A stretch of 64,000 bases of DNA from assembly GCA_024276575.1 (NCBI GenBank), contig JAJRWY010000312.1:1161-65160 (forward strand). Reading direction: 5' to 3'. The stretch comes from Candidatus Binatota bacterium (lineage in GTDB: Bacteria; Desulfobacterota; Binatia; UBA1149; CAITLU01). The translations under genes and the position numbers were made by a program. Shown one piece after another: positions 26,087-39,299 of the stretch; the first letter of the stretch is position 1; every line of letters starts with the position of its first letter. The notes beneath the pieces were generated by a model. That model was not told where the DNA came from. It did not search any database and was given only the letters and a program-made list of their open reading frames with translations.

Positions 26087-26357
26087 TTCTTGCGCGAAGG
26101 TGGCGTCGCGTCTTGATGCAACCGTCTTAGCACAAGCAAGGTGGCTGTCAAGAAAACGCGGCGACGGCGAATATAGCGACGGCGAACGCAGGGCAGGCGA
26201 ACGAAGGGGAAGTAAACTCAGCGGCGGTAAGTGGAGTCGCAGAAAGCGCAACGCCGGCACCGAACCCGGCCTCGGCACAATCGAATCCGCTTTTGATCCT
26301 CGCGGGTGCCACGCAGCCCCGGTTGCAATTGGCAATATACTGCCCGAGTGTGGCAAG

Positions 26358-29174
26358 GTGAGCGGCAACCCCGGCAGCCCGGTTTACCTGATCGACGTCA
26401 GTTTTTTCGTTTTTCGGGCCTACCACGCGTTGCCTCCGTTGAACACCTCATCGGGGCAGGCTACCAATGCGGTTCACGGGGTCGCGACCATGCTCGAGCG
26501 GCTGCTGCGCTCGGAAAGGCCCATCTATGTCGGAGCCTGCTTCGATTCTTCCGGCGACACCTTCCGCCATGAAATCTACCCCGACTACAAAGCCAACCGC
26601 GACGAACCCGATGAAGATTTGAAGCTTCAGTTCCCGTTGGTACGGCGCCTGATTCGCGCGATGAACATAACGTGTTTCGAGCACGCGGGCGCTGAAGCCG
26701 ACGATATTCTCGCGACTCTGGCGCTGCGTTGCTCGCGGGCCGGGCATAGTGTGGTGATCGTCACCGGGGACAAGGATCTCATGCAGTGTGTCAGTGACCG
26801 GGTCTCTCTGTCGGATCCGGTCAAGGGGCGGCGGGTCGGCAAGCCTCAGGTTCTGGAGAAGTTCGGTGTGGCTCCGGAGAGTGTTCCCGATGTGCTCGGT
26901 TTGATGGGGGATTCTTCCGACAATATTCCGGGTATCAAGGGTATAGGGCCAAAGAGTGCGGCGGTATTGATGGCCCATTTCGGATCTTTGGAGCAAATGT
27001 ACGAAAGGCTCGATGAGATTGAGTCGCTTTCTCTTCGCGGCGCCAAGGCGGTGCGCAAGAAGATCGAAGAAGGCCGGGCCATGGCCTTGCTGTGCCGCCG
27101 TCTGGCGACCGTCGACTACGAAATACCGGTGGATGCGGAACTCGAAGATCTACGCCTCTGTAAGCTCTCGAGCCCTGAACTCGAGGCTTTGGCTGAAGAA
27201 CTGGAGATGAGAAAGCTGCCGGTTCGCATGCGGGAGTTGGCGAGCAACCTAGGGCTCGAGATCGACAGTGGTGGTGTGGACCGTGAAGGCCATGGCGAGG
27301 CGGCGATCGAGAAGGATGGTGAAGTGCCGGGCAGATCCGCGAGTCCGGACGCAAAGATGCCTAAGCGGTCCGGGAACGGAGCTGAGGATCTCGGATTCGC
27401 GAATTCAGGGTCCGGTGAGGCTACGGGGTCAGGGATAGAGACCGGGGCTACCAGGGACCTTTTTACGACAGTTACAGATGCCGCGCAGCTGCGGAGCTGG
27501 GGAGATTGGCGGGCCATGGCCGGCGCCAGGGTCTACGTTGTTTTGATCACCGGCGGAGATTCCGCTCCCGGCCCGGCCGTACTGGCTGTCGGCCGTCCGG
27601 CGGGTGGGGAAGGGGAGTTCTTCGAGTCGGCCCTCCTGGTTGGCGAGGCGGTCCTGACACAGTGCCTGTCCGCCTACGCGGAAGCGGAAACAGATTTGGT
27701 TGGAGTGGATATCAAGGGCCTGTGCCGTGATTTCTCGGCGCGGCCGGGAAGCGACGGCCTCGATCTGGGAGTCGCTTCGTATCTGATCGACGCTTCAGCC
27801 GGGGATCACGGCCGCGAAGACATGGCCCGCCGCTTGCTCGGCGAAGAAGCTGTCGCGCTCGAAGCACGGCCTGATGCGGTCGAAGCCGCGCTTGCACAAT
27901 TACGTAGGCTCGAGTCGCGCGTGCTCGAATTGCTGAAGGAGCGTGAACAGACAAAGCTCTACCGAGAGCTTGAACACCCACTGCTTTCCTTGCTCGCCGC
28001 CATGGAAGCGCGTGGCATAATGCTCGACGTTGAGGCTCTGCACGCGATGTCGCGGGATCTGGAAGCAAGCATGGCCGAGTTGGTGGGCCGGGTCTATGAA
28101 GCCGCGGGTTGTGAATTCAACATTCTTTCGCCGCTGCAGTTGCGAGAGATCCTGTTCACGCGTCTCGGGCTGCCGAGCAAGGGGATCAAGAAGACCAAGA
28201 GCGGCCCCTCGACCGACAGCGATTCGCTGGCGGCACTGGCCGGCAAGCACCCTCTGCCCGATCTTGTCCTCGAGTACCGCGGTATGGCCAAGCTGAAGTC
28301 GACTTATGTGGACGCGTTGCCGCGCTTGGTCGACGAGCACGGGCGGATTCATACGAGACTCAACCAGACCGTGACTGCCACCGGCCGGCTCAGTTCCAAG
28401 GATCCTAACTTGCAGAACATTCCGGTGAGAACCGAGGAGGGTTCGCGTATAAGGGCGGCCTTCATCGCGCCGCCGGGAAGGCGCTTGGTGTCGGCGGATT
28501 ACAACCAGATAGAATTGAGGGTATTGGCCGAGTTGTCGCGCGACGAGAATCTGATCGCCGCTTTCGAGCAGGGGCTGGATATCCATACTGCGACTGCGGC
28601 CGAGTTGCTCGAGTTGCCGGCTGCGGAGGTGACGCCGGCGATGCGTCGTGAAGCCAAGGTGGTAAATTACGGGATCGTCTATGGTATGGGGCCGTCGCGC
28701 CTGTCACGAGAGCTTGGGATCAGCCGTGCGGCCGCTGCCGACTACATAGAGCGCTACTTCGAACGCTACGCCGGGGTTGCCCGCTACTACGAGCAAATGC
28801 TCGAGAGGGCGCGTGAACAGGGCTACGTATCTACGCTGTTTGGGCGCCGCCGCTATTTGCACGACATAAACAGTTCCCACGGAGGCCTTCGGCAAGCTGC
28901 GGAGAGAGTCGCGACCAACACCACCATTCAGGGTAGTGCCGCCGATTTGATCAAGCGCGCCATGGTCGATCTCGAGGCAGCCCTTGAAGCCAGTGGCGCA
29001 CCCGGCGCGGATCTCATTCTACAAATTCATTACGAGCTGTTACTCGAATGCGACGTGGGGGATGTCGATGCGGTTTCGGCCCTGCTGGTCGAGGTCATGG
29101 AGGGAGTTGCGGACCTCGTTGTTCCCGTTGCGGTCGAGGTGGGTAGCGGAAGCAATTGGGCCGAGGCCCACTGA
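26358..29174 (+). CDS. polA: DNA polymerase I; 3'-5' exonuclease domain appears degenerate and there is a low-complexity insert after the 5' nuclease domain
   Basis: 5'-3' exonuclease N-terminus (YLIDVSFFVFRAYHAL). Pol motifs A (DYNQIELRVLA), B (RREAKVVNYGIVYG) and C (QIHYELL). The Klenow Exo I motif reads VYVVLITGG with no DxE. GTG start chosen at 26358. Confidence 0.9.
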   Translation: MSGNPGSPVYLIDVSFFVFRAYHALPPLNTSSGQATNAVHGVATMLERLLRSERPIYVGACFDSSGDTFRHEIYPDYKANRDEPDEDLKLQFPLVRRLIRAMNITCFEHAGAEADDILATLALRCSRAGHSVVIVTGDKDLMQCVSDRVSLSDPVKGRRVGKPQVLEKFGVAPESVPDVLGLMGDSSDNIPGIKGIGPKSAAVLMAHFGSLEQMYERLDEIESLSLRGAKAVRKKIEEGRAMALLCRRLATVDYEIPVDAELEDLRLCKLSSPELEALAEELEMRKLPVRMRELASNLGLEIDSGGVDREGHGEAAIEKDGEVPGRSASPDAKMPKRSGNGAEDLGFANSGSGEATGSGIETGATRDLFTTVTDAAQLRSWGDWRAMAGARVYVVLITGGDSAPGPAVLAVGRPAGGEGEFFESALLVGEAVLTQCLSAYAEAETDLVGVDIKGLCRDFSARPGSDGLDLGVASYLIDASAGDHGREDMARRLLGEEAVALEARPDAVEAALAQLRRLESRVLELLKEREQTKLYRELEHPLLSLLAAMEARGIMLDVEALHAMSRDLEASMAELVGRVYEAAGCEFNILSPLQLREILFTRLGLPSKGIKKTKSGPSTDSDSLAALAGKHPLPDLVLEYRGMAKLKSTYVDALPRLVDEHGRIHTRLNQTVTATGRLSSKDPNLQNIPVRTEEGSRIRAAFIAPPGRRLVSADYNQIELRVLAELSRDENLIAAFEQGLDIHTATAAELLELPAAEVTPAMRREAKVVNYGIVYGMGPSRLSRELGISRAAAADYIERYFERYAGVARYYEQMLERAREQGYVSTLFGRRRYLHDINSSHGGLRQAAERVATNTTIQGSAADLIKRAMVDLEAALEASGAPGADLILQIHYELLLECDVGDVDAVSALLVEVMEGVADLVVPVAVEVGSGSNWAEAH

Positions 29175-29375
29175 GCAACCCGTTAGTCGTAGTCTCGCGG
29201 TGCTTTGCTGCACTTTCTGACCCTTGGGCGCTTCGTTGGCACCGTCTACGGGTCCGGCTTTGGGATCCGCTGCTGTTTTTTACCAAAGTTATTGGATTGC
29301 ATGGAGTTTCTTCGGCTTTGATGTGAATATGGCGTGATTGGTGGCGTCTACCGCTACTGATATGGAGCTGCATAC

Positions 29376-29945
29376 GTGGAATCAGATGATGGGGAACTCG
29401 TCGGCCGCGCCAAGAACGGTGACCGGCAGGCCATGCAGCAGCTCATGGAGCGCTACCAAGGGCGTCTCACAGGTGTTGCCGTTGGTATGCTCAAGAATCC
29501 CGACGATGCCAGTGAGGTCGTTCAAGAGACCTTCATTCGTGTCTTTCGCAACCTCGCCGGTTTCAAAGGCGACTCTTCATTCTACACGTGGGTGTACAGG
29601 ATAGCCGTGAACTTGGCGATTGATTTCAAGCGCCGCCAAGCTAAGCGGCCGTTAGTTGAGTTCGATGAGAGTCTCCCCCCCAGCGAAGAGCCCATTGGTT
29701 CCGGGGCCCACGATCTCGGCGAAGATCCTTTCAAGCGTGTCAGGAATAGAGAGTTGGGCCGCAAGATTTTTCAGGCGATGGACGATTTGACCCCTGATCA
29801 CCGGGCGGTCATACTTTTGCGGGAGATCGACGGACTCTCTTACGAGGAAATCAGCAAGGTTCTCGACTGTTCGATGGGAACCGTGATGAGCCGCCTTCAT
29901 TACGCGCGCAAGAAGCTGCAGACGCGCTTGACGGAGTTATTGTGA
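29376..29945 (+). CDS. ECF-family RNA polymerase sigma factor (sigma-70 regions 2 and 4)
   Basis: Region 2 is ASEVVQETFIRVFRNLAGFKGDSSFYTWVYRIAVNLAIDFKRRQ. Region 4 is LSYEEISKVLDCSMGTVMSRLHYARKKL. Confidence 0.88.
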   Translation: MESDDGELVGRAKNGDRQAMQQLMERYQGRLTGVAVGMLKNPDDASEVVQETFIRVFRNLAGFKGDSSFYTWVYRIAVNLAIDFKRRQAKRPLVEFDESLPPSEEPIGSGAHDLGEDPFKRVRNRELGRKIFQAMDDLTPDHRAVILLREIDGLSYEEISKVLDCSMGTVMSRLHYARKKLQTRLTELL

Positions 29946-30829
29946 AGGCTGTTATGAGTGAGTGCGACAAAGCTTCTGCCAACGTGATGAACTGCGCTGA
30001 GTTCAAGAAGAACTTCGATCTTTATGTAGACGATGAACTTGTCGTGACCGTTCGTGATGCGGCTGCCATGCACATTGCCTCGTGCCCGGCGTGTGAAGAG
30101 GCAGTGACCCGCTTCCAACAAAACCGCTGCATGTTGACGACGGCCGTAGCTGAACTAGCTGCGGCCGTTGACGTTTCCGGAATGTGGGAGAGAGTCGAGG
30201 CGGCTCTGGGAACGCCCGTGGCCGTAGCTGTGGAGCCGGTGCCGTCGCGGCCGCCGGCTTTCGCGAATCCGGCAGCGGGCGATATGGCGGATGCCGCGTC
30301 AAGCTCTTTGGGTAGGCGCTTGGCCGCCGCTTTCGGTTTGCGGCCGCTTGGTTATGTGTGGCGTCTGGGAACTGCTGCGAGTTTGTCGGCGGTGGCTGCG
30401 GCGATGTTGTTTTTGTTGTTTGCTGCGCCTGGTGTGGAAGTGGCCGACAACTCCGCTTCCCGATTGCAGGGTAGTTGGGGGGCACTGAGCCGCCTAGCCG
30501 CCAACTCAGATTTGCCCGTTAGCGGATCATCAAGATTTTCCTCGAGGTTTTCCCATGGCACCGGTTCGCACGTTAAGCGGGTCGCGTCCCGGCGAGTGAA
30601 GGCTGGCGGCTTTAGTGATTTTGGAGTGCCGGTTTCTTTGTCGTTGCCGTCTAAATTCTCGACGGCACTTGGTGCGCAAGCCGTGAGCCAGGCCGTTCGC
30701 GTGGATGCCATTGAGGCGGGTCCGGGCAGTTCGGTTTCCACATGGGAACTTCCGCGCAGCGGCGGCCGCGTGATATGGGTTTCCTCTACTGCCCGCACGG
30801 CGGCGTCCGCCGAAGCATTCGGTCGATGA
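29942..30829 (+). CDS. Anti-sigma factor, zinc-finger (ZAS, HxxxCxxC) type, with a TM segment
   Basis: N-terminal HIASCPACEE motif, central hydrophobic helix (LSAVAAAMLFLLFAAPGV). The start overlaps the sigma gene stop (GTGA). Confidence 0.75.
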   Translation: MKAVMSECDKASANVMNCAEFKKNFDLYVDDELVVTVRDAAAMHIASCPACEEAVTRFQQNRCMLTTAVAELAAAVDVSGMWERVEAALGTPVAVAVEPVPSRPPAFANPAAGDMADAASSSLGRRLAAAFGLRPLGYVWRLGTAASLSAVAAAMLFLLFAAPGVEVADNSASRLQGSWGALSRLAANSDLPVSGSSRFSSRFSHGTGSHVKRVASRRVKAGGFSDFGVPVSLSLPSKFSTALGAQAVSQAVRVDAIEAGPGSSVSTWELPRSGGRVIWVSSTARTAASAEAFGR

Positions 30830-31392
30830 ACAAGCCTTTGCTCCGTGCCGTGGCTTCGGCGTTGCTGGCCTGTCTGGCTTCGTACCCGGCCAGTGTCACG
30901 GCAGAGGAGCGTGCTTCGGTTGCACAAAGTGCACAAAGAGTCGCACTTCGGGTGTCGATGGTAATGGCTTCCAACGAGTCGAGGTATTTCGACCCCCGGC
31001 TCAAAGATCTCCGTGCCCAGTTAAAGCCGCTTCCTTTCAAGAATTACCGCCTTTTGGGTGTTGAAACCCGAGACCTCAGTACCTGGGCCCAGTGCGGTTT
31101 CCGCATCCCCGGCGGCCGTTACTTGCACGTCACGACCCAGGAGCGAACCGCGGACCACATCAAGATGAGGGTACTGTTGAATGAACACAACCGCCCTTTG
31201 CTAAATGCCGATGTCAAGCTCGACCACGACTCTGTCATAGTGCTGGGCGGGCCGCAGGAAGAAGAGGGCACGTTGATCATAACCATACGTGCGGTTTCCG
31301 GCTTGATGGAGCACGCACAGCCGGCGGCGGTGCATGCCGGCGGCGATTTACTGGATAGCGTAGATTCAGCGCCAGACGAGGGGAGTGAGTAG
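30826..31392 (+). CDS. Hypothetical exported protein co-transcribed with the ECF sigma/anti-sigma pair
   Basis: The ATG overlaps the anti-sigma stop (ATGA). Signal peptide MNKPLLRAVASALLACLASYPASVTA. No recognised domain. Confidence 0.6.
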   Translation: MNKPLLRAVASALLACLASYPASVTAEERASVAQSAQRVALRVSMVMASNESRYFDPRLKDLRAQLKPLPFKNYRLLGVETRDLSTWAQCGFRIPGGRYLHVTTQERTADHIKMRVLLNEHNRPLLNADVKLDHDSVIVLGGPQEEEGTLIITIRAVSGLMEHAQPAAVHAGGDLLDSVDSAPDEGSE

Positions 31393-31397
31393 CGGCG

Positions 31398-31703
31398 ATG
31401 TGGCCTTTCGACAATAGCTTCTATGAGGAAATATCGGCTCGGTTCGAAACTCTGCTCAAGGACGGTGAGGACGCCGGAAATACCAATGATCTGTCGGCTT
31501 TGCTTGCTCCGGTGGATCCTTTCAACCGTTCACCCTTGTTTACACCGGTCGTGAAAGCTCTGGGCGTCGCTGCGTTGGTAGCAATGACCGGGCTTGCCGC
31601 AGCCGGTTTAGTCGTGGCCTTCGTTGCTTTCCTCGGTCTTTACTTCTTGCTTACCGAAGTATTCGGTTACGAGCTTTCTCTGGCACCGCTGCAACCGATG
31701 TAG
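31398..31703 (+). CDS. Small hypothetical membrane protein (C-terminal TM helix)
   Basis: 101-aa ORF 5 nt after the preceding gene, with a hydrophobic C-terminus ALGVAALVAMTGLAAAGLVVAFVAFLGLYFLL. Confidence 0.45.
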   Translation: MWPFDNSFYEEISARFETLLKDGEDAGNTNDLSALLAPVDPFNRSPLFTPVVKALGVAALVAMTGLAAAGLVVAFVAFLGLYFLLTEVFGYELSLAPLQPM

Positions 31704-32332
31704 ATTGCGTCTTGCCGTACGGCGAGACCGAGTATTAGAGCACAGGCGACGGCTGCCGCATCGCATGCCGCCACCGCGTGCCGCCACTGGCGCAGGTGCT
31801 TGTCGTAGCCACCGGCCTGCCGGCTGCGGTCTGAATAACGCGCGGGGAAATCGAGACCGGATGGTCCGTGATCTTGCGTTCGACGGTGGCTTGGCAAGGC
31901 GCCGTAGTTACGACAATCGCTAAACAGATCAGGAAGCGGTGCCTGTGGATGCACTCCGCAAACGAAACCGCAACCACCGCCATCCGGCTCAAAAGTGTAC
32001 CATACAATCGGTACCGAAGTTTTGCGGGCATGTTCGATTTGGTTCAGATCCGAATGCTCGACTCCCGCTACTATGTAGCAGGCGATAGAAGTGGATGTTT
32101 GTGTAGCTTTGCGACCTCGTCCCCGGAGGCTTTCAATGCCTGGACCATCGCTGCGCGAGGATACGCTGACCCCCGCTGCTCTCAAGTAAAGGGATGCTTG
32201 TTCCACGCCGCGAGGGTGCCCGAGCAGTACCACTGTCGCCGCCAGTAACTTTCCCTGGCCTTCCGCACCGATGCCGGGGATGATGATCTGTCGCGCATAG
32301 CGTTCAATGCTCTCATCATCGAGAGTAGCCAT
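31667..32332 (-). CDS. Degenerate ThiF/MoeB-like (E1-like) protein that retains the N-terminal RYxRQ...GxEGQxKL motif but lacks the GxGxxG loop; possible pseudogene or accessory subunit
   Basis: The N-terminus ERYARQIIIPGIGAEGQGKLLAATVVLLG matches E1 enzymes. It is followed by HPRGVEQASLYLRAAGV instead of GxGxxG...ALYLAGAGV. The downstream sequence is diverged, AT-richer, and has a poor RBS. Confidence 0.4.
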   Translation of the reverse strand: MATLDDESIERYARQIIIPGIGAEGQGKLLAATVVLLGHPRGVEQASLYLRAAGVSVSSRSDGPGIESLRGRGRKATQTSTSIACYIVAGVEHSDLNQIEHARKTSVPIVWYTFEPDGGGCGFVCGVHPQAPLPDLFSDCRNYGALPSHRRTQDHGPSGLDFPARYSDRSRQAGGYDKHLRQWRHAVAACDAAAVACALILGLAVRQDAIYIGCSGARESS

Positions 32333-32359: not shown

Positions 32360-32599
32360 TCATTCTATGACGTTCTTCTCTATCGGCTCGACAGTGACGC
32401 CTTGCTCGGCGATCCATCGTACGGCCCGGTCAATCTCGTCTTGCTCACCTTCGAGTTCGAGAGCCATGATGCCCACATGCTCAGAAATCGAAGCACCGCG
32501 TATATTGGTGACCACGCGGAACTTGTGTCCGACGTGGTAAACGATCGGCTCCTTTATCTTCTCTTGGCTGTAGGTCAGGTAGAAACGTTGAAGTGTCAT
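32360..32599 (-). CDS. Stand-alone NIL-domain protein (MetN C-terminal-like ferredoxin-fold domain)
   Basis: 79 aa with the TNIRGASISEHVGIMALELEG motif characteristic of NIL domains. The ATG overlaps the cysM-like stop (ATGA) with a GAGGAG SD. Confidence 0.6.
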   Translation of the reverse strand: MTLQRFYLTYSQEKIKEPIVYHVGHKFRVVTNIRGASISEHVGIMALELEGEQDEIDRAVRWIAEQGVTVEPIEKNVIE

Positions 32600-33579
32600 T
32601 GGTTCTCCTCCGCGGCGGCGAGTTCATGGCGGTCGCGCCAGCCGGTCCACAGATTCGTAGATAAGTAGCGGTCGCCAAAATCGGGTAGCACTACCACCAC
32701 GCACCCGGATTGCAACTCCGCAGCCACTTCCAGTGCTGCGACTACCGCGGCACCGGAGGACTGTCCGACCAGCAGACCTTCTTTGGCGGCCAACTCGTAA
32801 ACCATCTCGTAAGCGGCATCGGTAGCCACACCCACCTTGCGGTCGAAGCCGGATTCGTCGTAAATACCCGGCACGATCGAGCTGCCCATGTGCTTCAAGC
32901 CTTCTATCCCGTGGAAGGCGTCGTCGGGCTCCACGGCTATTATTTCGACCTCAGGCTTGCGCGATCTCAAGTAGCGGCCGCAGCCCATTACGGTTCCGCT
33001 GGTACCGATCGTGGCGAGAAAGTGAGAGACGCGGCCGGCAGTTTGCTCCCAGATCTCGGGTCCTGTGGTCAGGAAGTGGGCCTCCGGATTGGCCGGGTTG
33101 TAGTACTGGTCGGGTTTGAAGTACGCGTCGGGATCGGCGTCGAACATCTTTTTGGCCAAGACGATGGAGCCGTCGGACCCTTCCATCGGATCGGACTCGA
33201 CTATTTCGGCGCCGTAAGCCGCAATCACCCGCAATCGTTCGCGTGAGGCGTTGGCGGGTATCACTAATTTTACCGGATATCCCAGCGCAGCGCCGATCAT
33301 CGCCAGCGCGATGCCGGTGTTGCCGGAAGTAGAATCGAGAATGGTTTTGCCGGGGCGTAAGTGTCCGTCTTCCAATCCACGACGCACCATGTTCCAGGCC
33401 GGGCGGTCTTTGACCGAACCGCCGGGGTTGAAGCCCTCGACTTTGGCGTACACTTCTACACCGCCGGCCAAGTGCGGGGTTACACCTCGCAGTTGGAGCA
33501 ACGGTGTGTCGCCGATCAAGTCGAGTATGCCTGTGGCCTCCGCCTCATTAAGGGTCGGCTGTTGGCGAGTCCGGTGCAC
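32596..33579 (-). CDS. cysM: Cysteine synthase-family PLP enzyme (CysK/CysM type; candidate thiocarboxylate-dependent O-phosphoserine sulfhydrylase)
   Basis: ILDLIGDTPLLQL and the PLP-Lys motif KVEGFNPGGSVKDR, plus the glycine-rich TSGNTG loop. The GTG start overlaps the tail of the upstream carrier gene. Confidence 0.85.
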   Translation of the reverse strand: MHRTRQQPTLNEAEATGILDLIGDTPLLQLRGVTPHLAGGVEVYAKVEGFNPGGSVKDRPAWNMVRRGLEDGHLRPGKTILDSTSGNTGIALAMIGAALGYPVKLVIPANASRERLRVIAAYGAEIVESDPMEGSDGSIVLAKKMFDADPDAYFKPDQYYNPANPEAHFLTTGPEIWEQTAGRVSHFLATIGTSGTVMGCGRYLRSRKPEVEIIAVEPDDAFHGIEGLKHMGSSIVPGIYDESGFDRKVGVATDAAYEMVYELAAKEGLLVGQSSGAAVVAALEVAAELQSGCVVVVLPDFGDRYLSTNLWTGWRDRHELAAAEENQ

Positions 33580-33854
33580 GCGCCGCCGGCGATAGCGGGA
33601 ACGATGGAGATTTCGTCGCCGTCTTTGACGGCGGACTCCAGGTCATCAAGAAAGCGAATGTCATCGCCGTTCACGTAAACATTTACGAAACGCCGTACTG
33701 AACCGTCGCGTTCGCAGATGCGCTCCTTGAGGCCTGGATGGGCTGCCTCGACGCTGTCGAGAACCGCGGCCACGGTCGAGCCTTCTGCGTCGACGGCTTC
33801 GTTGCCGCCTGTAAACTTTCTCAGGGGTGTGGGGATTCTTACCCGGACTGCCAT
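33516..33854 (-). CDS. MoaD/ThiS-family sulfur-carrier protein (CysO/MetO-like) with a 21-residue extension after the Gly-Gly
   Basis: MAVRVRIPTPLRKFTGG...VNGDDIRFLDDLESAVKDGDEISIVPAIAGG (GG at residues 90-91), followed in-frame by ACTGLANSRPLMRRRPQAYST before the stop. Strong SD TAGGAGGAAC upstream of the ATG at 33852-33854. Confidence 0.7.
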   Translation of the reverse strand: MAVRVRIPTPLRKFTGGNEAVDAEGSTVAAVLDSVEAAHPGLKERICERDGSVRRFVNVYVNGDDIRFLDDLESAVKDGDEISIVPAIAGGACTGLANSRPLMRRRPQAYST

Positions 33855-33891: not shown

Positions 33892-35184
33892 TCACGAACC
33901 GGTGGCCGGAGAAGCAATCGTGGAAGCCTGATCGCCGCCGGCTGTCTTGCCGGCTTCAAGACGCTCGTAAAGACGGTCGAATTCGTCGAGACGTGCTGCG
34001 ATATCGTGGGTGACCGGAACCGAATCACGAACCGCCTCGAGGGTCTTGTAGCCGTTGCCGGTAATAGAGATGACGATCGACTCATCTCGGGGTATGCGGC
34101 CTTGCTCTATGAGTTTCTTGGTAACCGCCACCGTGGTGCCCCCGGCCGGCTCGGTAAACACACCTTCCGTACGCGCCAGTAGTTTGATTGCTTCCACTAT
34201 TTCTTCGTCGCTAGCTGATTCACCCCATCCTCCGGAATCCCTGACCGCTCCGAGAACGTAATAGCCGTCGGCCGGGTTGCCGATCGCGATCGACTTGGCG
34301 ATGGTATGAGGCTTTACCGGTTCGATAAGGTCGGTTCCCCGGTGAAGGGCGTTGACGACCGGAGCGCAACCGGCGGCTTGCGCGGAGTATATCTTGAATC
34401 CGCTCTGCTCGACCAAGCCTACCCGCTGCAGCTCTTCAAAGGACTTGGCGACTTTGGGCAAGATGGTGCCGCCGGCGGTAGGAACGACGATGTGTTGGGG
34501 GAGCTTCCAGCCGAGTTGTTCGGCCACTTCGAATCCGTAAGTTTTGGCTCCTTCGGTGTAAAAAGGCCGCAGGTTGATGTTTGCGAAAGCCCAGCCGTAC
34601 TTGTCCGCGATCTCGGTGCACAGGCGGTTAACGTCGTCATAATTGCCGGAGATCGCGACCGGGACCGGGTTGTATATGGCCGATCCCACCACCTTGCCTT
34701 GTTCGAGGTTGTCGGGGATGAAGATGAAGCACCGCAGGCCGGCGCGTGCTGCATGGGCGGAAACGGAATTGGCTAGGTTGCCGGTAGAGGCGCATGCGAC
34801 GGTTTCGAAGCCGAACTCGACCGCTTTGGTCAGCGCGACCGAGACTACGCGGTCCTTGTAGGAGAAGGTCGGGTGGTTGACCGAATCGTCTTTTACGTAG
34901 AGTTCCGAGACGCCGAGCACTTCTGCCAAGCGATCGGCTTTGAGCAAGGGAGTAAAACCTGAATACAGGCCGATACGCGGCTCGGACTCCACCGGAAGCA
35001 ACTCGCGATATCTCCACAGGTTGGGTGGCCTCGCTTCAATGGTCTTGCGATCGACCGCAGCCGATATCTTGTCATAGTCGTATTCTACTTCGAGGGGGCC
35101 AAAGCAGTATTCACAGACGTGGTAGGGCTTGAGTTCGTAAGCCTCGCCACATTCACGGCACTTGAGGCCTTTTACAAAAGACAT
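33892..35184 (-). CDS. Threonine synthase-family PLP enzyme with an N-terminal zinc ribbon (ThrC, or a MetM-like O-phosphohomoserine-dependent homocysteine synthase)
   Basis: N-terminus CRECGE...CEYCFG and the PLP-Lys motif HPTFSYKDR. AAGGAGAT SD before the ATG at 35182-35184. The track ORF's 47-aa N-terminal extension was rejected. Confidence 0.8.
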   Translation of the reverse strand: MSFVKGLKCRECGEAYELKPYHVCEYCFGPLEVEYDYDKISAAVDRKTIEARPPNLWRYRELLPVESEPRIGLYSGFTPLLKADRLAEVLGVSELYVKDDSVNHPTFSYKDRVVSVALTKAVEFGFETVACASTGNLANSVSAHAARAGLRCFIFIPDNLEQGKVVGSAIYNPVPVAISGNYDDVNRLCTEIADKYGWAFANINLRPFYTEGAKTYGFEVAEQLGWKLPQHIVVPTAGGTILPKVAKSFEELQRVGLVEQSGFKIYSAQAAGCAPVVNALHRGTDLIEPVKPHTIAKSIAIGNPADGYYVLGAVRDSGGWGESASDEEIVEAIKLLARTEGVFTEPAGGTTVAVTKKLIEQGRIPRDESIVISITGNGYKTLEAVRDSVPVTHDIAARLDEFDRLYERLEAGKTAGGDQASTIASPATGS

Positions 35185-35198
35185 GGTAGTTATCTCCT

Positions 35199-35957
35199 TC
35201 AGCGGTCGATGCCGGGCGCTGCAGCGGCGGGCTCGTAACCGCGGGGTCGTGAACGGGTTTCCCCCGAGCGGGAGCATCGCGGGCAAGCGGGATCCCTGGG
35301 GAAATATACATGGCGCCAACGGCACCCTGACAATTCATAGATATTCATGCGGCCGGGACACAGGCTTTTGTCTCCACCAAGGTAACGAAGCGCGTCTTGC
35401 GCTTGTGCGGTTCCCACCAAGCCGGCCACTGGTGCGAGAATGCCCATAGCTGAACAGCCGCCGTCGGCTTCCTGCGGGTGGTCGTCGGGGAAAGCGCATG
35501 CGAGGCAGGCCGACACGCCCGGCACCACGGTCATCCATTGGCCGGTGGTTCTGATCACACCGCCGTAACAGAAAGCGGTGCCGGTCGAGACTGCAACGGC
35601 GTTTATCATGAATTTCGTGGCCGGGTCGTCACAAGCGTCGATCACGAAATCATGAGAGGAAACGAGGCTCTCGGCGTTGCCGGTGTTCAACGTATCTTCG
35701 ATGGGACGAATTTCAGTGGTAACAGGGCCGCCGGCGGATGCGGCTAGAGCCTTACGCGCGGCCTCGGCCTTGGGTGCTCCGACGTCGCTGTCGCCGAACA
35801 AGACCTGCCGCTGCAGGTTCGAAAGCTCGATGCGGTCGGGGTCGATAATCGTGAGTTTGGCAACTCCGGCGCCCACGAGCATGCGCGCGGCAGCGCAACC
35901 GAGGGCGCCGACGCCCACCAACAGAACCGAATCTTTTGTTTGCTGCTGCAAGTACAA
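35199..35957 (-). CDS. ThiF/MoeB/MoeZ-type E1-like sulfur-carrier-protein adenylyltransferase
   Basis: VLLVGVGALGCAAARMLVGAGV (GxGxxG), DPDRIELSNLQRQ, and zinc motifs CxxC...CxxC. Only a TTG start at 35955-35957 is available, and it abuts the riboswitch terminator U-tract. Confidence 0.8.
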   Translation of the reverse strand: MYLQQQTKDSVLLVGVGALGCAAARMLVGAGVAKLTIIDPDRIELSNLQRQVLFGDSDVGAPKAEAARKALAASAGGPVTTEIRPIEDTLNTGNAESLVSSHDFVIDACDDPATKFMINAVAVSTGTAFCYGGVIRTTGQWMTVVPGVSACLACAFPDDHPQEADGGCSAMGILAPVAGLVGTAQAQDALRYLGGDKSLCPGRMNIYELSGCRWRHVYFPRDPACPRCSRSGETRSRPRGYEPAAAAPGIDR

Positions 35958-35989
35958 AAAAACCTCTTCCAGGCGGGATAAGGAAGAGG
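35956..35989 (-). terminator. Intrinsic terminator hairpin forming the expression platform of the SAM-I riboswitch
   Basis: On the minus strand, CCUCUUCC-UUAUCCCGCCU-GGAAGAGG followed by UUUUUUU. The 3' stem arm GGAAGAGG doubles as a putative SD for the thiF-like TTG. Confidence 0.7.
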
Positions 35990-36011: not shown

Positions 36012-36168
36012 TCTCCTTATCTTTCACCCTCTTTGCATTTGCGTGAACTCGATTACGCGCTCACCGCAACGCTAAGGTGCGGGACTTAGCACCTGCCGCC
36101 CGCTTGCGCAGGCCGGTTGCTGTGGCTTCACAGGGCCCATTCCCTCCGCCACTCTGAATAAGGAACGG
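36012..36168 (-). promoter_or_regulatory. SAM-I (S-box) riboswitch aptamer
   Basis: The minus-strand RNA reads UUCCUUAUUCAGAGUGGCGGAGGGAAUGGGCCCUGUGAAGCCACAGCAACC...CAGGUGCUAAGUCCCGCA...GAAAGAUAAGGAGAGG. This matches the S-box consensus CUUAUCAAGAGNGGYGGAGGGAYUGGCCCNAUGAARCCCRGCAACC...GGUGCYAAUUCCNGC...GAGAUAAG, including P1 pairing CUUAU/AUAAG. Confidence 0.8.
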
Positions 36169-36332: not shown

Positions 36333-37067
36333 ATGTCGCGTCGTGTAGAGTTACAGGGGCTTCGCAATTTTCGAGATCTGGGTGGGTTTAACACCCACGA
36401 CGGGCGCCGTACGGCTACCGGGCGCTTGTTTCGCTCCGACGGCTTGCACCGTGTCAGCGCCGCCGACCTTCGCTTACTCGAAGCGATGTCGATACGCAGG
36501 GTCTACGACCTGCGTAGCCAGATCGAGTTGGATAATGACGGAGTCGGGCCGTTTGCAGGGGCCGCCGGACGGCACCGGCATATGCCTCTTATCAAGGTCA
36601 GTTTGAACCCTTACGATCCCGATCTCGATTGGAAAACGATGGACTTGCGCAACCGCTACTACGAAATGCTGTGCGAAGGCGCTGCAACTATAGCCGCCAT
36701 ACTCGGTGAACTGTCGGTGGCCGGTTGCGAGCCTGCGGTTTTTCACTGCAGTGGGGGCAAGGATCGCACGGGAGTGCTCGCTGCGGTTATTCTGCGGAGT
36801 TTAGGGGTAGCCGATGATGATATCGTAGCCGACTATGCTCTGTCGGAACGCTATCTCTCGCCGGTGGTCGAGCGCTACCGGGAGGCTATGGAGGCCGGAG
36901 GTATAGACGAAGAGACGGTTTCGTATCTTATCTCGAGTCCGCCCGAGCGAATGATTCATACCCTGAACAAGATGGACGAGTGTTGGGGCGGGATCCGCGG
37001 TTACTTGGATGCGATTGGGGTGAGCGAACGACAGGTCCGCGGTCTCGAGCGCAATCTGTTGATATGA
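36333..37067 (+). CDS. Protein-tyrosine-phosphatase-like protein (CX5R active site; Y_phosphatase3/DSP-like)
   Basis: Active-site motif HCSGGKDRTG. Confidence 0.75.
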   Translation: MSRRVELQGLRNFRDLGGFNTHDGRRTATGRLFRSDGLHRVSAADLRLLEAMSIRRVYDLRSQIELDNDGVGPFAGAAGRHRHMPLIKVSLNPYDPDLDWKTMDLRNRYYEMLCEGAATIAAILGELSVAGCEPAVFHCSGGKDRTGVLAAVILRSLGVADDDIVADYALSERYLSPVVERYREAMEAGGIDEETVSYLISSPPERMIHTLNKMDECWGGIRGYLDAIGVSERQVRGLERNLLI

Positions 37068-37245
37068 TGTTGATCTGAACCGGCTCGAACTGCCGGTCGC
37101 GGGGACTCTGGCCCGGCTCCAGAAGGGCGGGGAGTCGTTGCAACCGCCCCCCTTCTGCACTGTCCATGTCGACTCGACTCAGCCAGCGCCTCCCGGCACT
37201 TTCGACGGGGCCTCGGGCCTTCAGTGACTGGCTGCGCCGCAGGGG

Positions 37246-37947
37246 CTATAGCGATCCGCTTGGTCCCGAGTCCTCTTGCACCGCAAGAGGACTCGCACTC
37301 CCGCGCAATTCAGCGAGCTTGCGCTGTGCCTCGAGCGCGCTCTCGCTGTCCGGGTAGGTGTCGAGAACATACGAGTAGCGCGCCATCGCCGCTTCCTTGC
37401 GGTCGTGTTCCAGATAATAGTCGCCGACGTAGAGCTCATGCCTAGCGAGATGCTCGATGCTCTGCCGTAGCCGGAAGCTGGCTAGTGTAGAGTAGATGGA
37501 ATCGGGATACCTTTGCAGCAGGCGCTCGAACTGTCGTTTGGCCTGGGCAGAAGCCGAAGTGTCACGGTCTCCGTCAAGCGCCCGGTCGAGGTGGCACATT
37601 CCCACAGTGTATTCCACGAAAGGAAGGCGGTCGCTGACCGGGTAGAGCCTCTCGAAGTCGTTGAAAGCCGCGATGGCCTTCTCGTATTGGGCGGTTAGGT
37701 AGTAAGCCTGCGCGATCTTGATGCTGGCGCTCTCAGCGTATTCAGAGAAGGGGAACTGCTCGAGCAACTCTTCATAGTTACCGATGGCTTGAATGTAATT
37801 GCGGTGTTCGAAATAACGCGAAGCTTCGTCTTCCAGCTCGTCCTCGGTGAGTGGGGCGGGCGCCCCGCAAGCCGAGATCAGTATAAGGGTGGAGACTATG
37901 AGCAGGGCGCTTCGGTAGCGCCGCAATATGTGCTTAGGGCCGTTCAT
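37246..37947 (-). CDS. bamD: BamD/YfiO-like TPR lipoprotein (outer-membrane protein assembly factor-like)
   Basis: Lipoprotein signal LILISAC followed by TPR-like repeats with typical BamD spacing. The track ORF's 72-aa N-terminal extension was rejected. Confidence 0.6.
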   Translation of the reverse strand: MNGPKHILRRYRSALLIVSTLILISACGAPAPLTEDELEDEASRYFEHRNYIQAIGNYEELLEQFPFSEYAESASIKIAQAYYLTAQYEKAIAAFNDFERLYPVSDRLPFVEYTVGMCHLDRALDGDRDTSASAQAKRQFERLLQRYPDSIYSTLASFRLRQSIEHLARHELYVGDYYLEHDRKEAAMARYSYVLDTYPDSESALEAQRKLAELRGSASPLAVQEDSGPSGSL

Positions 37948-37985
37948 ACTTGTGTAAAGCTTAGCGATGTTACGCTGCCCGGTCC

Positions 37986-38015
37986 ACAGCAACCGTGGGC
38001 ACAGCAACCGTGGGC
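37986..38015. repeat. Perfect 15-bp tandem duplication (ACAGCAACCGTGGGC x2) in a divergent intergenic region
   Basis: Read directly from the sequence, between bamD-like (minus) and arsA-like (plus). Confidence 0.9.
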
Positions 38016-38129
38016 AAGAGTCCGCGGGCTGGTGTCCGGCGCTTCTTCGAGACGGTGTCTCCGGCAGGATCGGTGGCGGCCTGTTCGGCAGTGTATCGTT
38101 GCATGGTCCACAAGACAGCAAGGGGACGC

Positions 38130-38161
38130 CGGCAAGCCTGCAACCGGCAAGGCAAGCCTGC
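38130..38161. repeat. Direct repeat GGCAAGCCTGCA x2 (about 8-nt spacing) in the leader of the arsA-like gene
   Basis: Read directly from the sequence, about 70 nt upstream of the predicted start at 38230. Confidence 0.8.
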
Positions 38162-38229
38162 ACACAGTGCGCTGGCCTGCATCCCGGTTGACCCGCGAAT
38201 GGGCAAGAAGTAAGGCCGGGAGTGTTTTG

Positions 38230-39198
38230 ATGAGCAAACGGCTGCAGTTCGTCGTCGGTAAGGGGGGAGTGGGCAAATCTACAGTGGCGGCCGCACTTGC
38301 CGTCGCTGCCGCCGGCCCTAACGAGCGGGTCTTACTACTGGAGTTGGGCGCGCCTGGAGGAGCCGCGCGATTGTTGTCTCCGGGTAAGCCCGGCCGGGGC
38401 CCGGTCGAAGTCCTCGACGGGCTCTATCTGGACTGCGTGGAAGGCGATGCTGCGCTGGCGGAGTACCTGGAGTTGGTCGTTCCCATACGCCGTCTTCTGC
38501 GTTTGGTTTTCGAGAGTAATCTTTACCGTAGTTTCGTCGCGGCAGCGCCAGGTCTCAAAGAGCTGATGACGATGGGAAAGATCTGGTTCGAAGCCGAGAG
38601 ACGCGATGCCGCCGGCAAGCCGCTATGGGATTGTATAGTGGTCGATGCCGGGGCATCCGGGCACAGTCTGAAGTACTTACAGATGCCGGCTACTGCCGCG
38701 GCGACCTTCAAATCGGGTTTGGTACATCGAGAGTCTCAACGCGTGGAAGCGCTACTCGAGGATCCATCGCTCTCGGTGGTGCACGTGGTCGCGTCTCCCG
38801 AAGACATGCCGCTGTTTGAAGCTGCCGAGATCGTCGAGAAACTCAACGGCCCTTTGTCGATGCCGTTCGGAAAGTTGTTCGTCAACCGTTGCCGGGAGCG
38901 ACCGCCTGAAGGCGCCGGTACGGCTGTCGACAGCTTGCGGCGGTTTACCCCACTTCCCGAGCAGCGGGCCTTGCGTGACGCTGTCGTCGATGCCGCGGCA
39001 TCCTGCCTGGGCTGGTACCGGGTGCAAGAGCGCGGTATCGCGGCGGTCGAGGACCGCCTAGGTCTGCGGGTCTGCAGGCTTCCCTTGCAGCAGAGCGAAG
39101 AATTCGGCTTAGCCGAGTTACGCCTGCTGGCTTCACTGGTCAAGGACGCGGTGCAGGACCCCGGGGGCACTAGCGACTCCCGCGACGAGGTTTCATGA
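38230..39198 (+). CDS. ArsA/GET3-family P-loop ATPase, divergent paralogue (first of a tandem pair)
   Basis: P-loop VVGKGGVGKST and A-loop-like DAGASGHSL. It lacks the canonical DPA motif (LLELGAPGG in its place). The track ORF's upstream extension was rejected. Confidence 0.75.
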   Translation: MSKRLQFVVGKGGVGKSTVAAALAVAAAGPNERVLLLELGAPGGAARLLSPGKPGRGPVEVLDGLYLDCVEGDAALAEYLELVVPIRRLLRLVFESNLYRSFVAAAPGLKELMTMGKIWFEAERRDAAGKPLWDCIVVDAGASGHSLKYLQMPATAAATFKSGLVHRESQRVEALLEDPSLSVVHVVASPEDMPLFEAAEIVEKLNGPLSMPFGKLFVNRCRERPPEGAGTAVDSLRRFTPLPEQRALRDAVVDAAASCLGWYRVQERGIAAVEDRLGLRVCRLPLQQSEEFGLAELRLLASLVKDAVQDPGGTSDSRDEVS

Positions 39199-39299
39199 AT
39201 AATGCGGGATAAGGAACATCCCCGCGATGCTATGACCGAGCATGACATTGTCGGGGCGGTAGAAGAACCGGCTGCAGGTGTATTGGAGGACTCTAGCGA

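Follow-up and report, generated by a model that had tools for sequence, protein, structure and literature searches.

A free-standing NIL-domain protein in a sulfur-carrier operon of a Candidatus Binatota bacterium: probably an accessory subunit of carrier-based homocysteine and cysteine synthesis

The window analysed here is a stretch of 64,000 nucleotides of contig JAJRWY010000312.1 from a Candidatus Binatota bacterium, and the gene under study, at 32360..32599 on the (-) strand, encodes a free-standing NIL-domain protein of 79 aa with an ATG start and no cysteine (open reading frame (ORF) list, PF09383, AlphaFold2 (AF2) and Foldseek). It is gene 5 of 6 in an operon which is read, on the (-) strand, in the order S-adenosylmethionine (SAM) riboswitch > ThiF > ThrC-like enzyme > ThiS/MoaD carrier > CysM-like enzyme > NIL > DS, the last being a degenerate ThiF-family protein; all the operon coordinates given below refer to this strand. 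Very probably, the NIL protein is dedicated to the thiocarboxylate-dependent synthesis of homocysteine and cysteine, as a component without catalytic function. The role that we favour, with a probability of roughly 0.45, is that of a ligand-sensing regulatory small subunit of this synthesis, where ligand, partner and direction of the regulation are those that we infer. Catalogue entries already exist for NIL domains and for stand-alone 'NIL domain-containing proteins', but the protein is probably an undescribed accessory subunit of the carrier-based pathway, most likely a regulatory one.

The NIL gene and its genomic context

An earlier interpretation of the same DNA, hereafter the sequence-only reading, had proposed a 79-aa stand-alone NIL-domain protein embedded in a sulfur-carrier operon. 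The profile check with PF09383 that it called for gave a significant match of 55.3 bits (E 6e-15, profile positions 3-72 of 73) for a gathering score of 24 bits, in a single-domain protein, and in NCBIfam the match was confined to the last 70 residues of the MetN model. The ORF was also found to be conserved in relatives. The protein has 533 close homologues, nearly all of exactly 79 aa, and the best 120 of them are 72-86% identical to it. When the gene was compared with 30 orthologous loci, the median frequency of nonsynonymous differences (pN) was 0.15, for a median synonymous value (pS) of 0.68 that is near saturation. Taken together, the homologue set and the pN/pS values show that the NIL gene is not a chance ORF; it is genuine and under purifying selection.

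Translational coupling of the gene to the preceding CysM-like gene had been proposed as well, and its elements are present in the window. The CysM-like stop TGA (32598-32596) overlaps the NIL ATG (32599-32597) in a 4-nt ATGA, and a Shine-Dalgarno (SD) site read from the sequence, GGAGGAG (32605..32611), lies within the 3' end of the CysM-like gene, at a distance of 5 nt from the NIL ATG. However, the exact 4-nt overlap is not general among relatives, as it was seen in only 2 related loci; the CysM-to-NIL spacing is short in most of them, mostly between -31 and +41 nt.

The sulfur-carrier operon itself was confirmed, with ThiF, a ThrC-like enzyme, a ThiS/MoaD carrier and a CysM-like enzyme as neighbours of the NIL gene. 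Its conservation was followed in a Binatia-type sample of 85 loci, composed of the best 80 of 298 loci (one genome per species) and of five metagenomic ones. The 80 loci belong nearly all to metagenome-assembled genomes (MAGs) that carry the label Binatia, Binataceae, 'Deltaproteobacteria' or 'Myxococcales'. The complete order ThiF>ThrC-like>ThiS>CysM>NIL>DS was intact in at least 64 of the 85 loci, and most of the exceptions corresponded to contig ends.

Homologues are much more widespread than this group. A profile-free exhaustive search with the NIL protein returned 611 cluster representatives (50% identity, E <= 0.001), many of which are stand-alone proteins of about 80 aa, together with some tandem NIL-NIL proteins and some fusions. 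Furthermore, a profile search for a second, Chloroflexi-type subfamily led to at least 7888 stand-alone NIL proteins, whose named members are mostly Chloroflexi and Dehalococcoidia. A sample of 86 Chloroflexi-type loci was examined for gene context, 75 of them being scorable upstream of NIL and 81 downstream. A ThrC-like gene was directly upstream in 67 of the 75, and ThiS was directly downstream in 30 of the 81. The co-occurrence of NIL-only ORFs with carrier genes, which the sequence-only reading had suggested looking for, was recovered in both subfamilies. Other contexts were Rrf2-CBS-CysK-CysE-TusA-Cys/Met-PLP-ThrC-like-NIL-IscS-NifU-Thi4...ThiS-ThiF, ThrC-like-ThiS-ThiF-DsrE-DsrE-CysK-x-TusA-NIL-NIL-Rrf2 in Nitrospinae (locus L175) and ThiS-NIL-CysH-CysD-CysNC in locus L176. 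Thus, the linkage of stand-alone NIL proteins to carrier-based sulfur amino-acid synthesis spans phyla, and the steadiest neighbour of NIL across them is the ThrC-like enzyme. The sequence-only reading had dwelt on the coupling to the CysM-like gene; across phyla, the most constant partners are the ThrC-like gene and the carrier, not CysM.

In addition, NIL was found elsewhere in natural fusions to ThiS, JAMM and ThrC-like proteins, which had not been anticipated. The ThiS::NIL fusions (165-175 aa; one cluster with 4 members, seen on at least 10 contigs in three sources) keep the AIAGG motif, after which the chain continues as A-M-AGKK... and enters a NIL domain that shares its subtype with the window protein, and they occur in the context ThrC-like-TusA-ThiS::NIL-ThiF. 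JAMM(MPN)::NIL fusions of 237 and 249 aa were also obtained; JAMM::NIL is carried by 5.9-Mb genome contigs, and its context in locus L172 is Rrf2-CysK/M-PAPS reductase-ThiS-JAMM::NIL. The ThrC-like::NIL fusion is a fragment among the representatives. These fusions are independent Rosetta-stone links of NIL to three different components of the carrier system.

Fold and proposed function of the NIL protein

The AF2 model of the NIL protein, built with a 40-sequence alignment, had a mean predicted local distance difference test (pLDDT) score of 92.7 and a predicted template modelling (pTM) score of 0.81. It shows a b-a-b-b-a-b arrangement with strands at residues 2-11, 29-39, 42-51 and 69-72 and helices at residues 19-26 and 53-65, and residues 77-79 have a pLDDT below 50. 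When the model was compared by Foldseek with the Protein Data Bank (PDB), the top matches were solely MetN C2/NIL domains (3tui, 3tuz, 3dhx, 2qsw, 2qrr and 3ced), with a TMq of 0.82 and a root-mean-square deviation (rmsd) of 1.1-1.2 Å. The next-best neighbours were ACT domains, namely those of SerB2, GTP pyrophosphokinase (RelA) and PGDH, followed by NikR C-domains. All the structural neighbours listed are small-molecule-sensing regulatory modules.

The C2 domain of Escherichia coli MetN (PDB 3DHW, 3TUI, 3TUZ, 3DHX) belongs to the same Pfam family and has the same fold, with 25-27% identity and an rmsd of about 1.2 Å. Residues T31-N32-I33-R34-G-A36 of the window protein align with N-N295-I-I-S-A299 of MetN, in which N295 contacts methionine, the N295A substitution abolishes methionine binding and A299 pairs across the dimer strand (PMC6233128). 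The residues equivalent to this Asn and this Ala, N32 and A36, are both kept, and are invariant or nearly so in alignments of 23 and 40 sequences (33-86% identity). In the 40-sequence alignment, which includes both subfamilies, the invariant positions are T9, P18, T31, N32, I33, R34, A36, L47, E48, G51, W62, V70, P72 and E79. The NIL family differs from MetN by R34, which is near-invariant in the family whereas MetN has no Arg at this place, and by a conserved C-terminal tail absent from MetN. This tail reads EPIEKNVIE (Binatia type) or DPVxGDxVEG (Chloroflexi type), and flexibility is predicted for its last residues. Unlike MetN C2, the window protein is neither attached to an ABC ATPase nor encoded near a transporter: no ABC ATPase fusion was found, the protein consists of the NIL domain only, and its neighbours are ThiF, PALP, ThiS and PALP proteins. 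Its output must use a separate partner.

Tandem NIL-NIL proteins of 164-179 aa were observed among the homologues (P0121, P0125, P0138 and, in Nitrospinae, L175:5001-5495), one cluster having 55 members. Such a covalent NIL dimer fits a ligand site at the dimer interface.

No cysteine was present in the 232 NIL family members checked, and no conserved Cys/His/Ser/Asp catalytic set was seen in the NIL alignment. The lack of cysteine in these members excludes Fe-S or persulfide chemistry. Furthermore, the 79-aa protein has no Pfam match to a ferredoxin domain, and neither the operon genes nor those called in 11 Pfam-listed contexts include a DUF39/COG1900 gene, the rest of the genome being unsearched. 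In databases, homologues (P0002, P0003, P0011, P0044 and others) bear the names 'FeS-binding protein', 'ABC-type methionine transport system ATPase subunit' or 'L-aspartate semialdehyde sulfurtransferase ferredoxin'; judged against the protein itself, these three names misfit a 79-aa, cysteine-free, NIL-only product, and the first and the third are mistakenly transferred annotations. The sequence-only reading had suggested a ligand-binding or sulfur-handling accessory role. Its first part is the better supported one, by the MetN C2 fold and by the retention of N32 and A36, whereas direct sulfur handling is not supported, since a protein without cysteine can hold neither a persulfide nor an Fe-S cluster.

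If the NIL protein is a regulatory subunit, its action may be pictured as follows. ThiF would activate the ThiS-type carrier, and the ThrC-like (MetM-type) and CysM-like enzymes would use the carrier thiocarboxylate to produce homocysteine and cysteine. The NIL protein would dimerise via the TNIRGA strand and bind methionine or a similar compound, for instance homocysteine, across the dimer interface, as in MetN C2. In its liganded form, it would then bind and throttle a pathway protein, most probably the ThrC-like enzyme, which would stand at the O-phosphohomoserine branch point, where threonine synthesis also begins; the conserved flexible C-terminal tail possibly mediates this binding. In this way, a fast feedback would be superimposed on the control by the SAM riboswitch.

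Comparable devices exist. In such a role, the NIL protein would be the free counterpart of a module that MetN carries in cis. IlvN and IlvH are ACT-domain small regulatory subunits of acetohydroxyacid synthase and resemble the NIL protein in being small, free b-a-b-b-a-b proteins encoded directly after a catalytic subunit, with a ligand expected at the dimer interface. They belong, however, to another Pfam family without detectable sequence relation, and a contact between NIL and a PLP (pyridoxal 5'-phosphate) enzyme is hypothetical. The CysO-CysM-Mec+ cysteine pathway of Mycobacterium tuberculosis (CysM structures 3DKI and 3DWG) is similar in that a CysM-like PLP gene adjoins a ThiS-type carrier, and JAMM::NIL occurs in such a cluster (L172). 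It differs in that no Mec+ (JAMM) was found in the window, while the described mycobacterial cluster is without NIL. The NIL-ferredoxin subunit (MA1822 / DvMF_0262) of L-aspartate semialdehyde sulfurtransferase (L-ASST) provides another example: here, too, a NIL domain serves an unconventional route to homocysteine, and that of the methanogen subunit has been assumed by authors to sense methionine. In contrast, the window protein has no 4Fe-4S domain and no cysteine, and its partners are ThrC-like/ThiS instead of DUF39/COG1900 proteins.

The closest parallel to the ThrC-like/ThiS pair is offered by Streptomyces albulus, in which the ThrC homologue MetM and the MoaD-like carrier MetO convert O-phosphohomoserine to homocysteine; in the published pathway, the steps are MetO, Mec, MoeZ and MetM only (GapMind 2026 preprint citing Hasebe 2024). 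The S. albulus metM gene also has an upstream SAM riboswitch (PMC12172450). Both systems thus combine a ThrC homologue adjoining a MoaD/ThiS-type carrier with SAM riboswitch control, and the ThrC-like gene and carrier are likewise associated in the 85 Binatia-type loci and in the Chloroflexi type. The differences are that MetM/MetO comprises four proteins and no NIL, whereas the window operon adds its own ThiF, a CysM-like enzyme, NIL and a degenerate ThiF paralog, and that no JAMM/Mec was found near the window operon. A published pathway without any NIL step fits an accessory, not an essential catalytic, role for the NIL protein.

Several points weigh against the regulatory role. N32 and A36 are defining residues of all NIL domains, so that methionine is not distinguished from other candidate ligands by their conservation, and, as R34 and the C-terminal tail are absent from MetN, the ligand or the partner may differ. 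MetN C2 holds two covalently attached ATPase domains apart, so that a free NIL protein needs another output mechanism. In Binatia, the NIL gene follows CysM and not the ThrC-like gene, and the partner is therefore not pinned down. The operon is, moreover, already under SAM-level control. Finally, the ThiS and JAMM fusions fit the binding of a carrier tail or adduct at least as well as they fit regulation.

Following this last point, the NIL protein could be a carrier adaptor, which would recognise the ThiS-type C-terminal tail or a carrier-GG-homocysteine or -cysteine adduct and present the carrier for processing, product release or hand-off among ThiF, the PLP enzymes and a peptidase. The adduct contains a methionine-like amino acid with a free carboxylate, which the near-invariant R34 could bind. 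No NIL domain is known to bind a protein tail. The genomic associations go partly in the same direction: ThiS::NIL has kept its AIAGG, JAMM::NIL adjoins ThiS and CysK/M, and ThiS directly adjoins NIL in L176 and in the 30 Chloroflexi-type loci mentioned above, but it is the ThrC-like gene, and not ThiS, that adjoins NIL most constantly. The carrier extends 1-20 residues beyond GG in 57 of 78 Binatia-type operons, most commonly by one variable residue; such carriers must undergo C-terminal processing. A tblastn search with two JAMM domains did not detect any JAMM gene, either in the 64-kb window (best E 0.34) or, over a distance of 8 kb, in the 85 loci. However, a NIL protein devoid of catalytic residues is unable to replace the peptidase, and 24 of 38 Chloroflexi-type carriers adjoining NIL end exactly at GG, so that processing cannot be the general role of NIL. 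On balance, the adaptor function, the main rival of the regulatory role, is considered somewhat unlikely. As to the search itself, a weak JAMM match at the window end was rejected because it is a type II secretion F-like ORF.

A product buffer or channel, which would bind newly formed homocysteine, a reactive and toxic compound, and pass it to methionine synthase without regulating anything, appears very unlikely. In its favour, the sole characterised NIL ligand, methionine/selenomethionine, closely resembles homocysteine, the operon is part of the methionine regulon and NIL directly follows the putative homocysteine synthase in most Chloroflexi-type loci. Stoichiometric buffering would nevertheless require a very high abundance, no methionine synthase gene was linked in the loci examined, and the ThiS and JAMM fusions would be left unexplained. 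As for a sulfur-transfer or redox accessory like the NIL-ferredoxin of the DUF39 aspartate-semialdehyde pathway, a type of protein that the sequence-only reading had mentioned with MA1822, it is suggested by the 'FeS-binding protein' and 'L-aspartate semialdehyde sulfurtransferase ferredoxin' names of some homologues and by the requirement of the NIL-ferredoxin for homocysteine synthesis in Desulfovibrio and Methanosarcina (PMC5764234), but it is extremely improbable and, for the Fe-S or persulfide role, effectively refuted by the 232 cysteine-free members, to which the missing ferredoxin domain, the missing DUF39/COG1900 among the operon genes and the transferred nature of the names may be added.

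The finding matters beyond the window. Carrier-dependent cysteine synthesis is known mainly from mycobacteria, and the MetM/MetO route was reportedly described only in 2024, by Hasebe et al. Here, several large and mostly uncultured lineages (Binatia, Chloroflexi and Nitrospinae; thousands of sequences) carry in such operons a further small protein that is highly conserved and uncharacterised, and its only characterised NIL relatives are methionine sensors. The cross-phylum linkage of NIL to ThrC-like/ThiS and CysM clusters, the fusions and the family-specific tail appear to be undescribed in the literature searched, the coverage of which is incomplete. The finding bears on the control of flux at the O-phosphohomoserine branch point, between threonine and methionine, in these bacteria. 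It also corrects the misleading database names, and the adjacency of NIL could be used in annotation to mark MetM-type enzymes as opposed to true threonine synthases.

The SAM riboswitch and the catalytic genes

The operon is headed by a SAM-I riboswitch aptamer (36014..36164), which had gone unmentioned in the sequence-only reading and which matches RF00162 over its full length with 75.8 bits, for a gathering score of 44.4. Its expression platform, read from the sequence at 35956..35989, is a hairpin, CCTCTTCC...GGAAGAGG, with a T-run after it. Of the two arms, the 3' one, GGAAGAGG, is also the sole SD-like element before the ThiF TTG start at 35957. As this terminator-like hairpin contains the SD-like element of ThiF, it could act on both transcription and translation. 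In a consensus promoter/terminator scan of the operon, the riboswitch hairpin was not listed and fewer sites were returned than with shuffled controls. The presence of the riboswitch at the head assigns the operon to the methionine regulon and to methionine biosynthesis. Among related loci, a SAM riboswitch was found ahead of ThiF in 8 of the 9 that were checked; it was absent from the 12 non-Binatia NIL loci checked, and the idea of a general companion of NIL was consequently rejected.

The ThrC-like PLP enzyme (33892..35184) matches PALP with 217 bits and NF006050 with 312 bits. Because of the SAM riboswitch and of the adjacent carrier, the ThrC-like/ThiS pair was read as being of the MetM/MetO type, and the enzyme is a putative MetM-type, carrier-thiocarboxylate-dependent homocysteine synthase, for which the only name offered by the NCBIfam models is 'threonine synthase'. 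The enzyme carries an extra N-terminal zinc-ribbon segment, NinF-like and with CxxC, and solved ThrC structures align to it only from residue ~52. This extra part of about 50 aa (35100-35184), with a CxxC...CxxC pattern and a weak NinF match, is absent from solved threonine synthases, and the same NinF match was observed in ThrC-like genes adjoining NIL in Chloroflexi and Nitrospinae. The segment may be a marker of the MetM type.

The ThiS/MoaD-type sulfur carrier (33516..33854) matches PF02597 with 68.5 bits, and NF041918 (SAMP1) and TIGR01687 above their cutoffs. In the window, it extends about 20 residues beyond the PAIAGG motif (33516-33580). The CysM/CysK-like PLP enzyme of the cysteine synthase family (32596..33579, annotated GTG start) matches PALP with 235 bits and TIGR01138 (cysM) with 361 bits, below the cutoff of 394; its closest solved relatives are OASS-B/CysM (242 bits) and M. 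tuberculosis CysM (3dwg, 199 bits). These similarities and the adjacent carrier make it a candidate carrier-dependent cysteine synthase of the CysM/CysO type. The longest CysM-like ORF, from the GTG at 33579, overlaps the 3' tail of the carrier gene by 64 nt (33516-33579), and the gene calls of CysM-like orthologues are some 14 aa shorter (313 aa in L001). The CysM gene may thus either start at a more downstream position or be overlapped by the carrier tail.

A possible heteromeric E1 and the flanking regions

The ThiF/MoeB-type, E1-like adenylyltransferase of the operon (35199..35957) is devoid of the usual N-terminal RYxRQ segment: PF00899 was matched with 204 bits at profile positions 20-237 only, and PRK05690 from position 28. 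The R[YFW]xRQ motif before the G-loop was also absent in 71 of 72 orthologues of this ThiF, and the ORF cannot extend in the 5' direction, since the riboswitch hairpin abuts its start. The N-terminal Arg of RYxRQ reaches the ATP site of the partner subunit in MoeB and in eukaryotic E1s.

The last gene of the operon encodes DS (31667..32332; 221 aa), which has no Pfam match but whose N-terminal 56 aa match MoeB/ThiF models, and which is conserved downstream of NIL in Binatia-type loci. DS keeps the RYxRQ motif but has lost the GxGxxG nucleotide loop; R11, R14, Q15, G22 and Q26 are invariant and Y12 is nearly so. An AF2 model of DS, built with database homologues, is Rossmann-like (pLDDT 77.7), and its best structural matches are ThiF, MoeB and Uba4, the inactive subunits APPBP1 and SAE1 being also listed. 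The truncated ThiF and the degenerate DS might thus form, on the evidence of these motifs, an active/inactive bacterial E1 heterodimer. The possibility that the 221-aa ORF of DS is a frameshifted 162-aa gene was rejected, as the ORF is in frame throughout with two insertions and orthologues have 151-256 aa.

A more detailed version of the regulatory role can be combined with this E1. In this version, the NIL dimer would sense methionine or homocysteine and then occupy, with its conserved acidic C-terminal tail, the active-site channel of a PLP enzyme, either the ThrC-like or the CysM-like one. There the tail would compete with the GG tail of the carrier, according to a CysE-CysK-type logic transposed to protein-thiocarboxylate chemistry; in Binatia, this would be associated with a heteromeric E1 made of the truncated ThiF and of DS, the latter supplying in trans, like eukaryotic E1 enzymes, the arginine finger of RYxRQ. 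Taken as a whole, this scheme is unlikely.

Outside the operon, the wider synteny (26100-31400 and 36333-39200) is shared with related MAGs (L001, L004). One flank comprises PolA, an ECF sigma factor, a zf-HC2 anti-sigma factor and small unknown ORFs, and the other a Y_phosphatase3 protein, a YfiO/BamD-like TPR protein and two ArsA-like ATPases.

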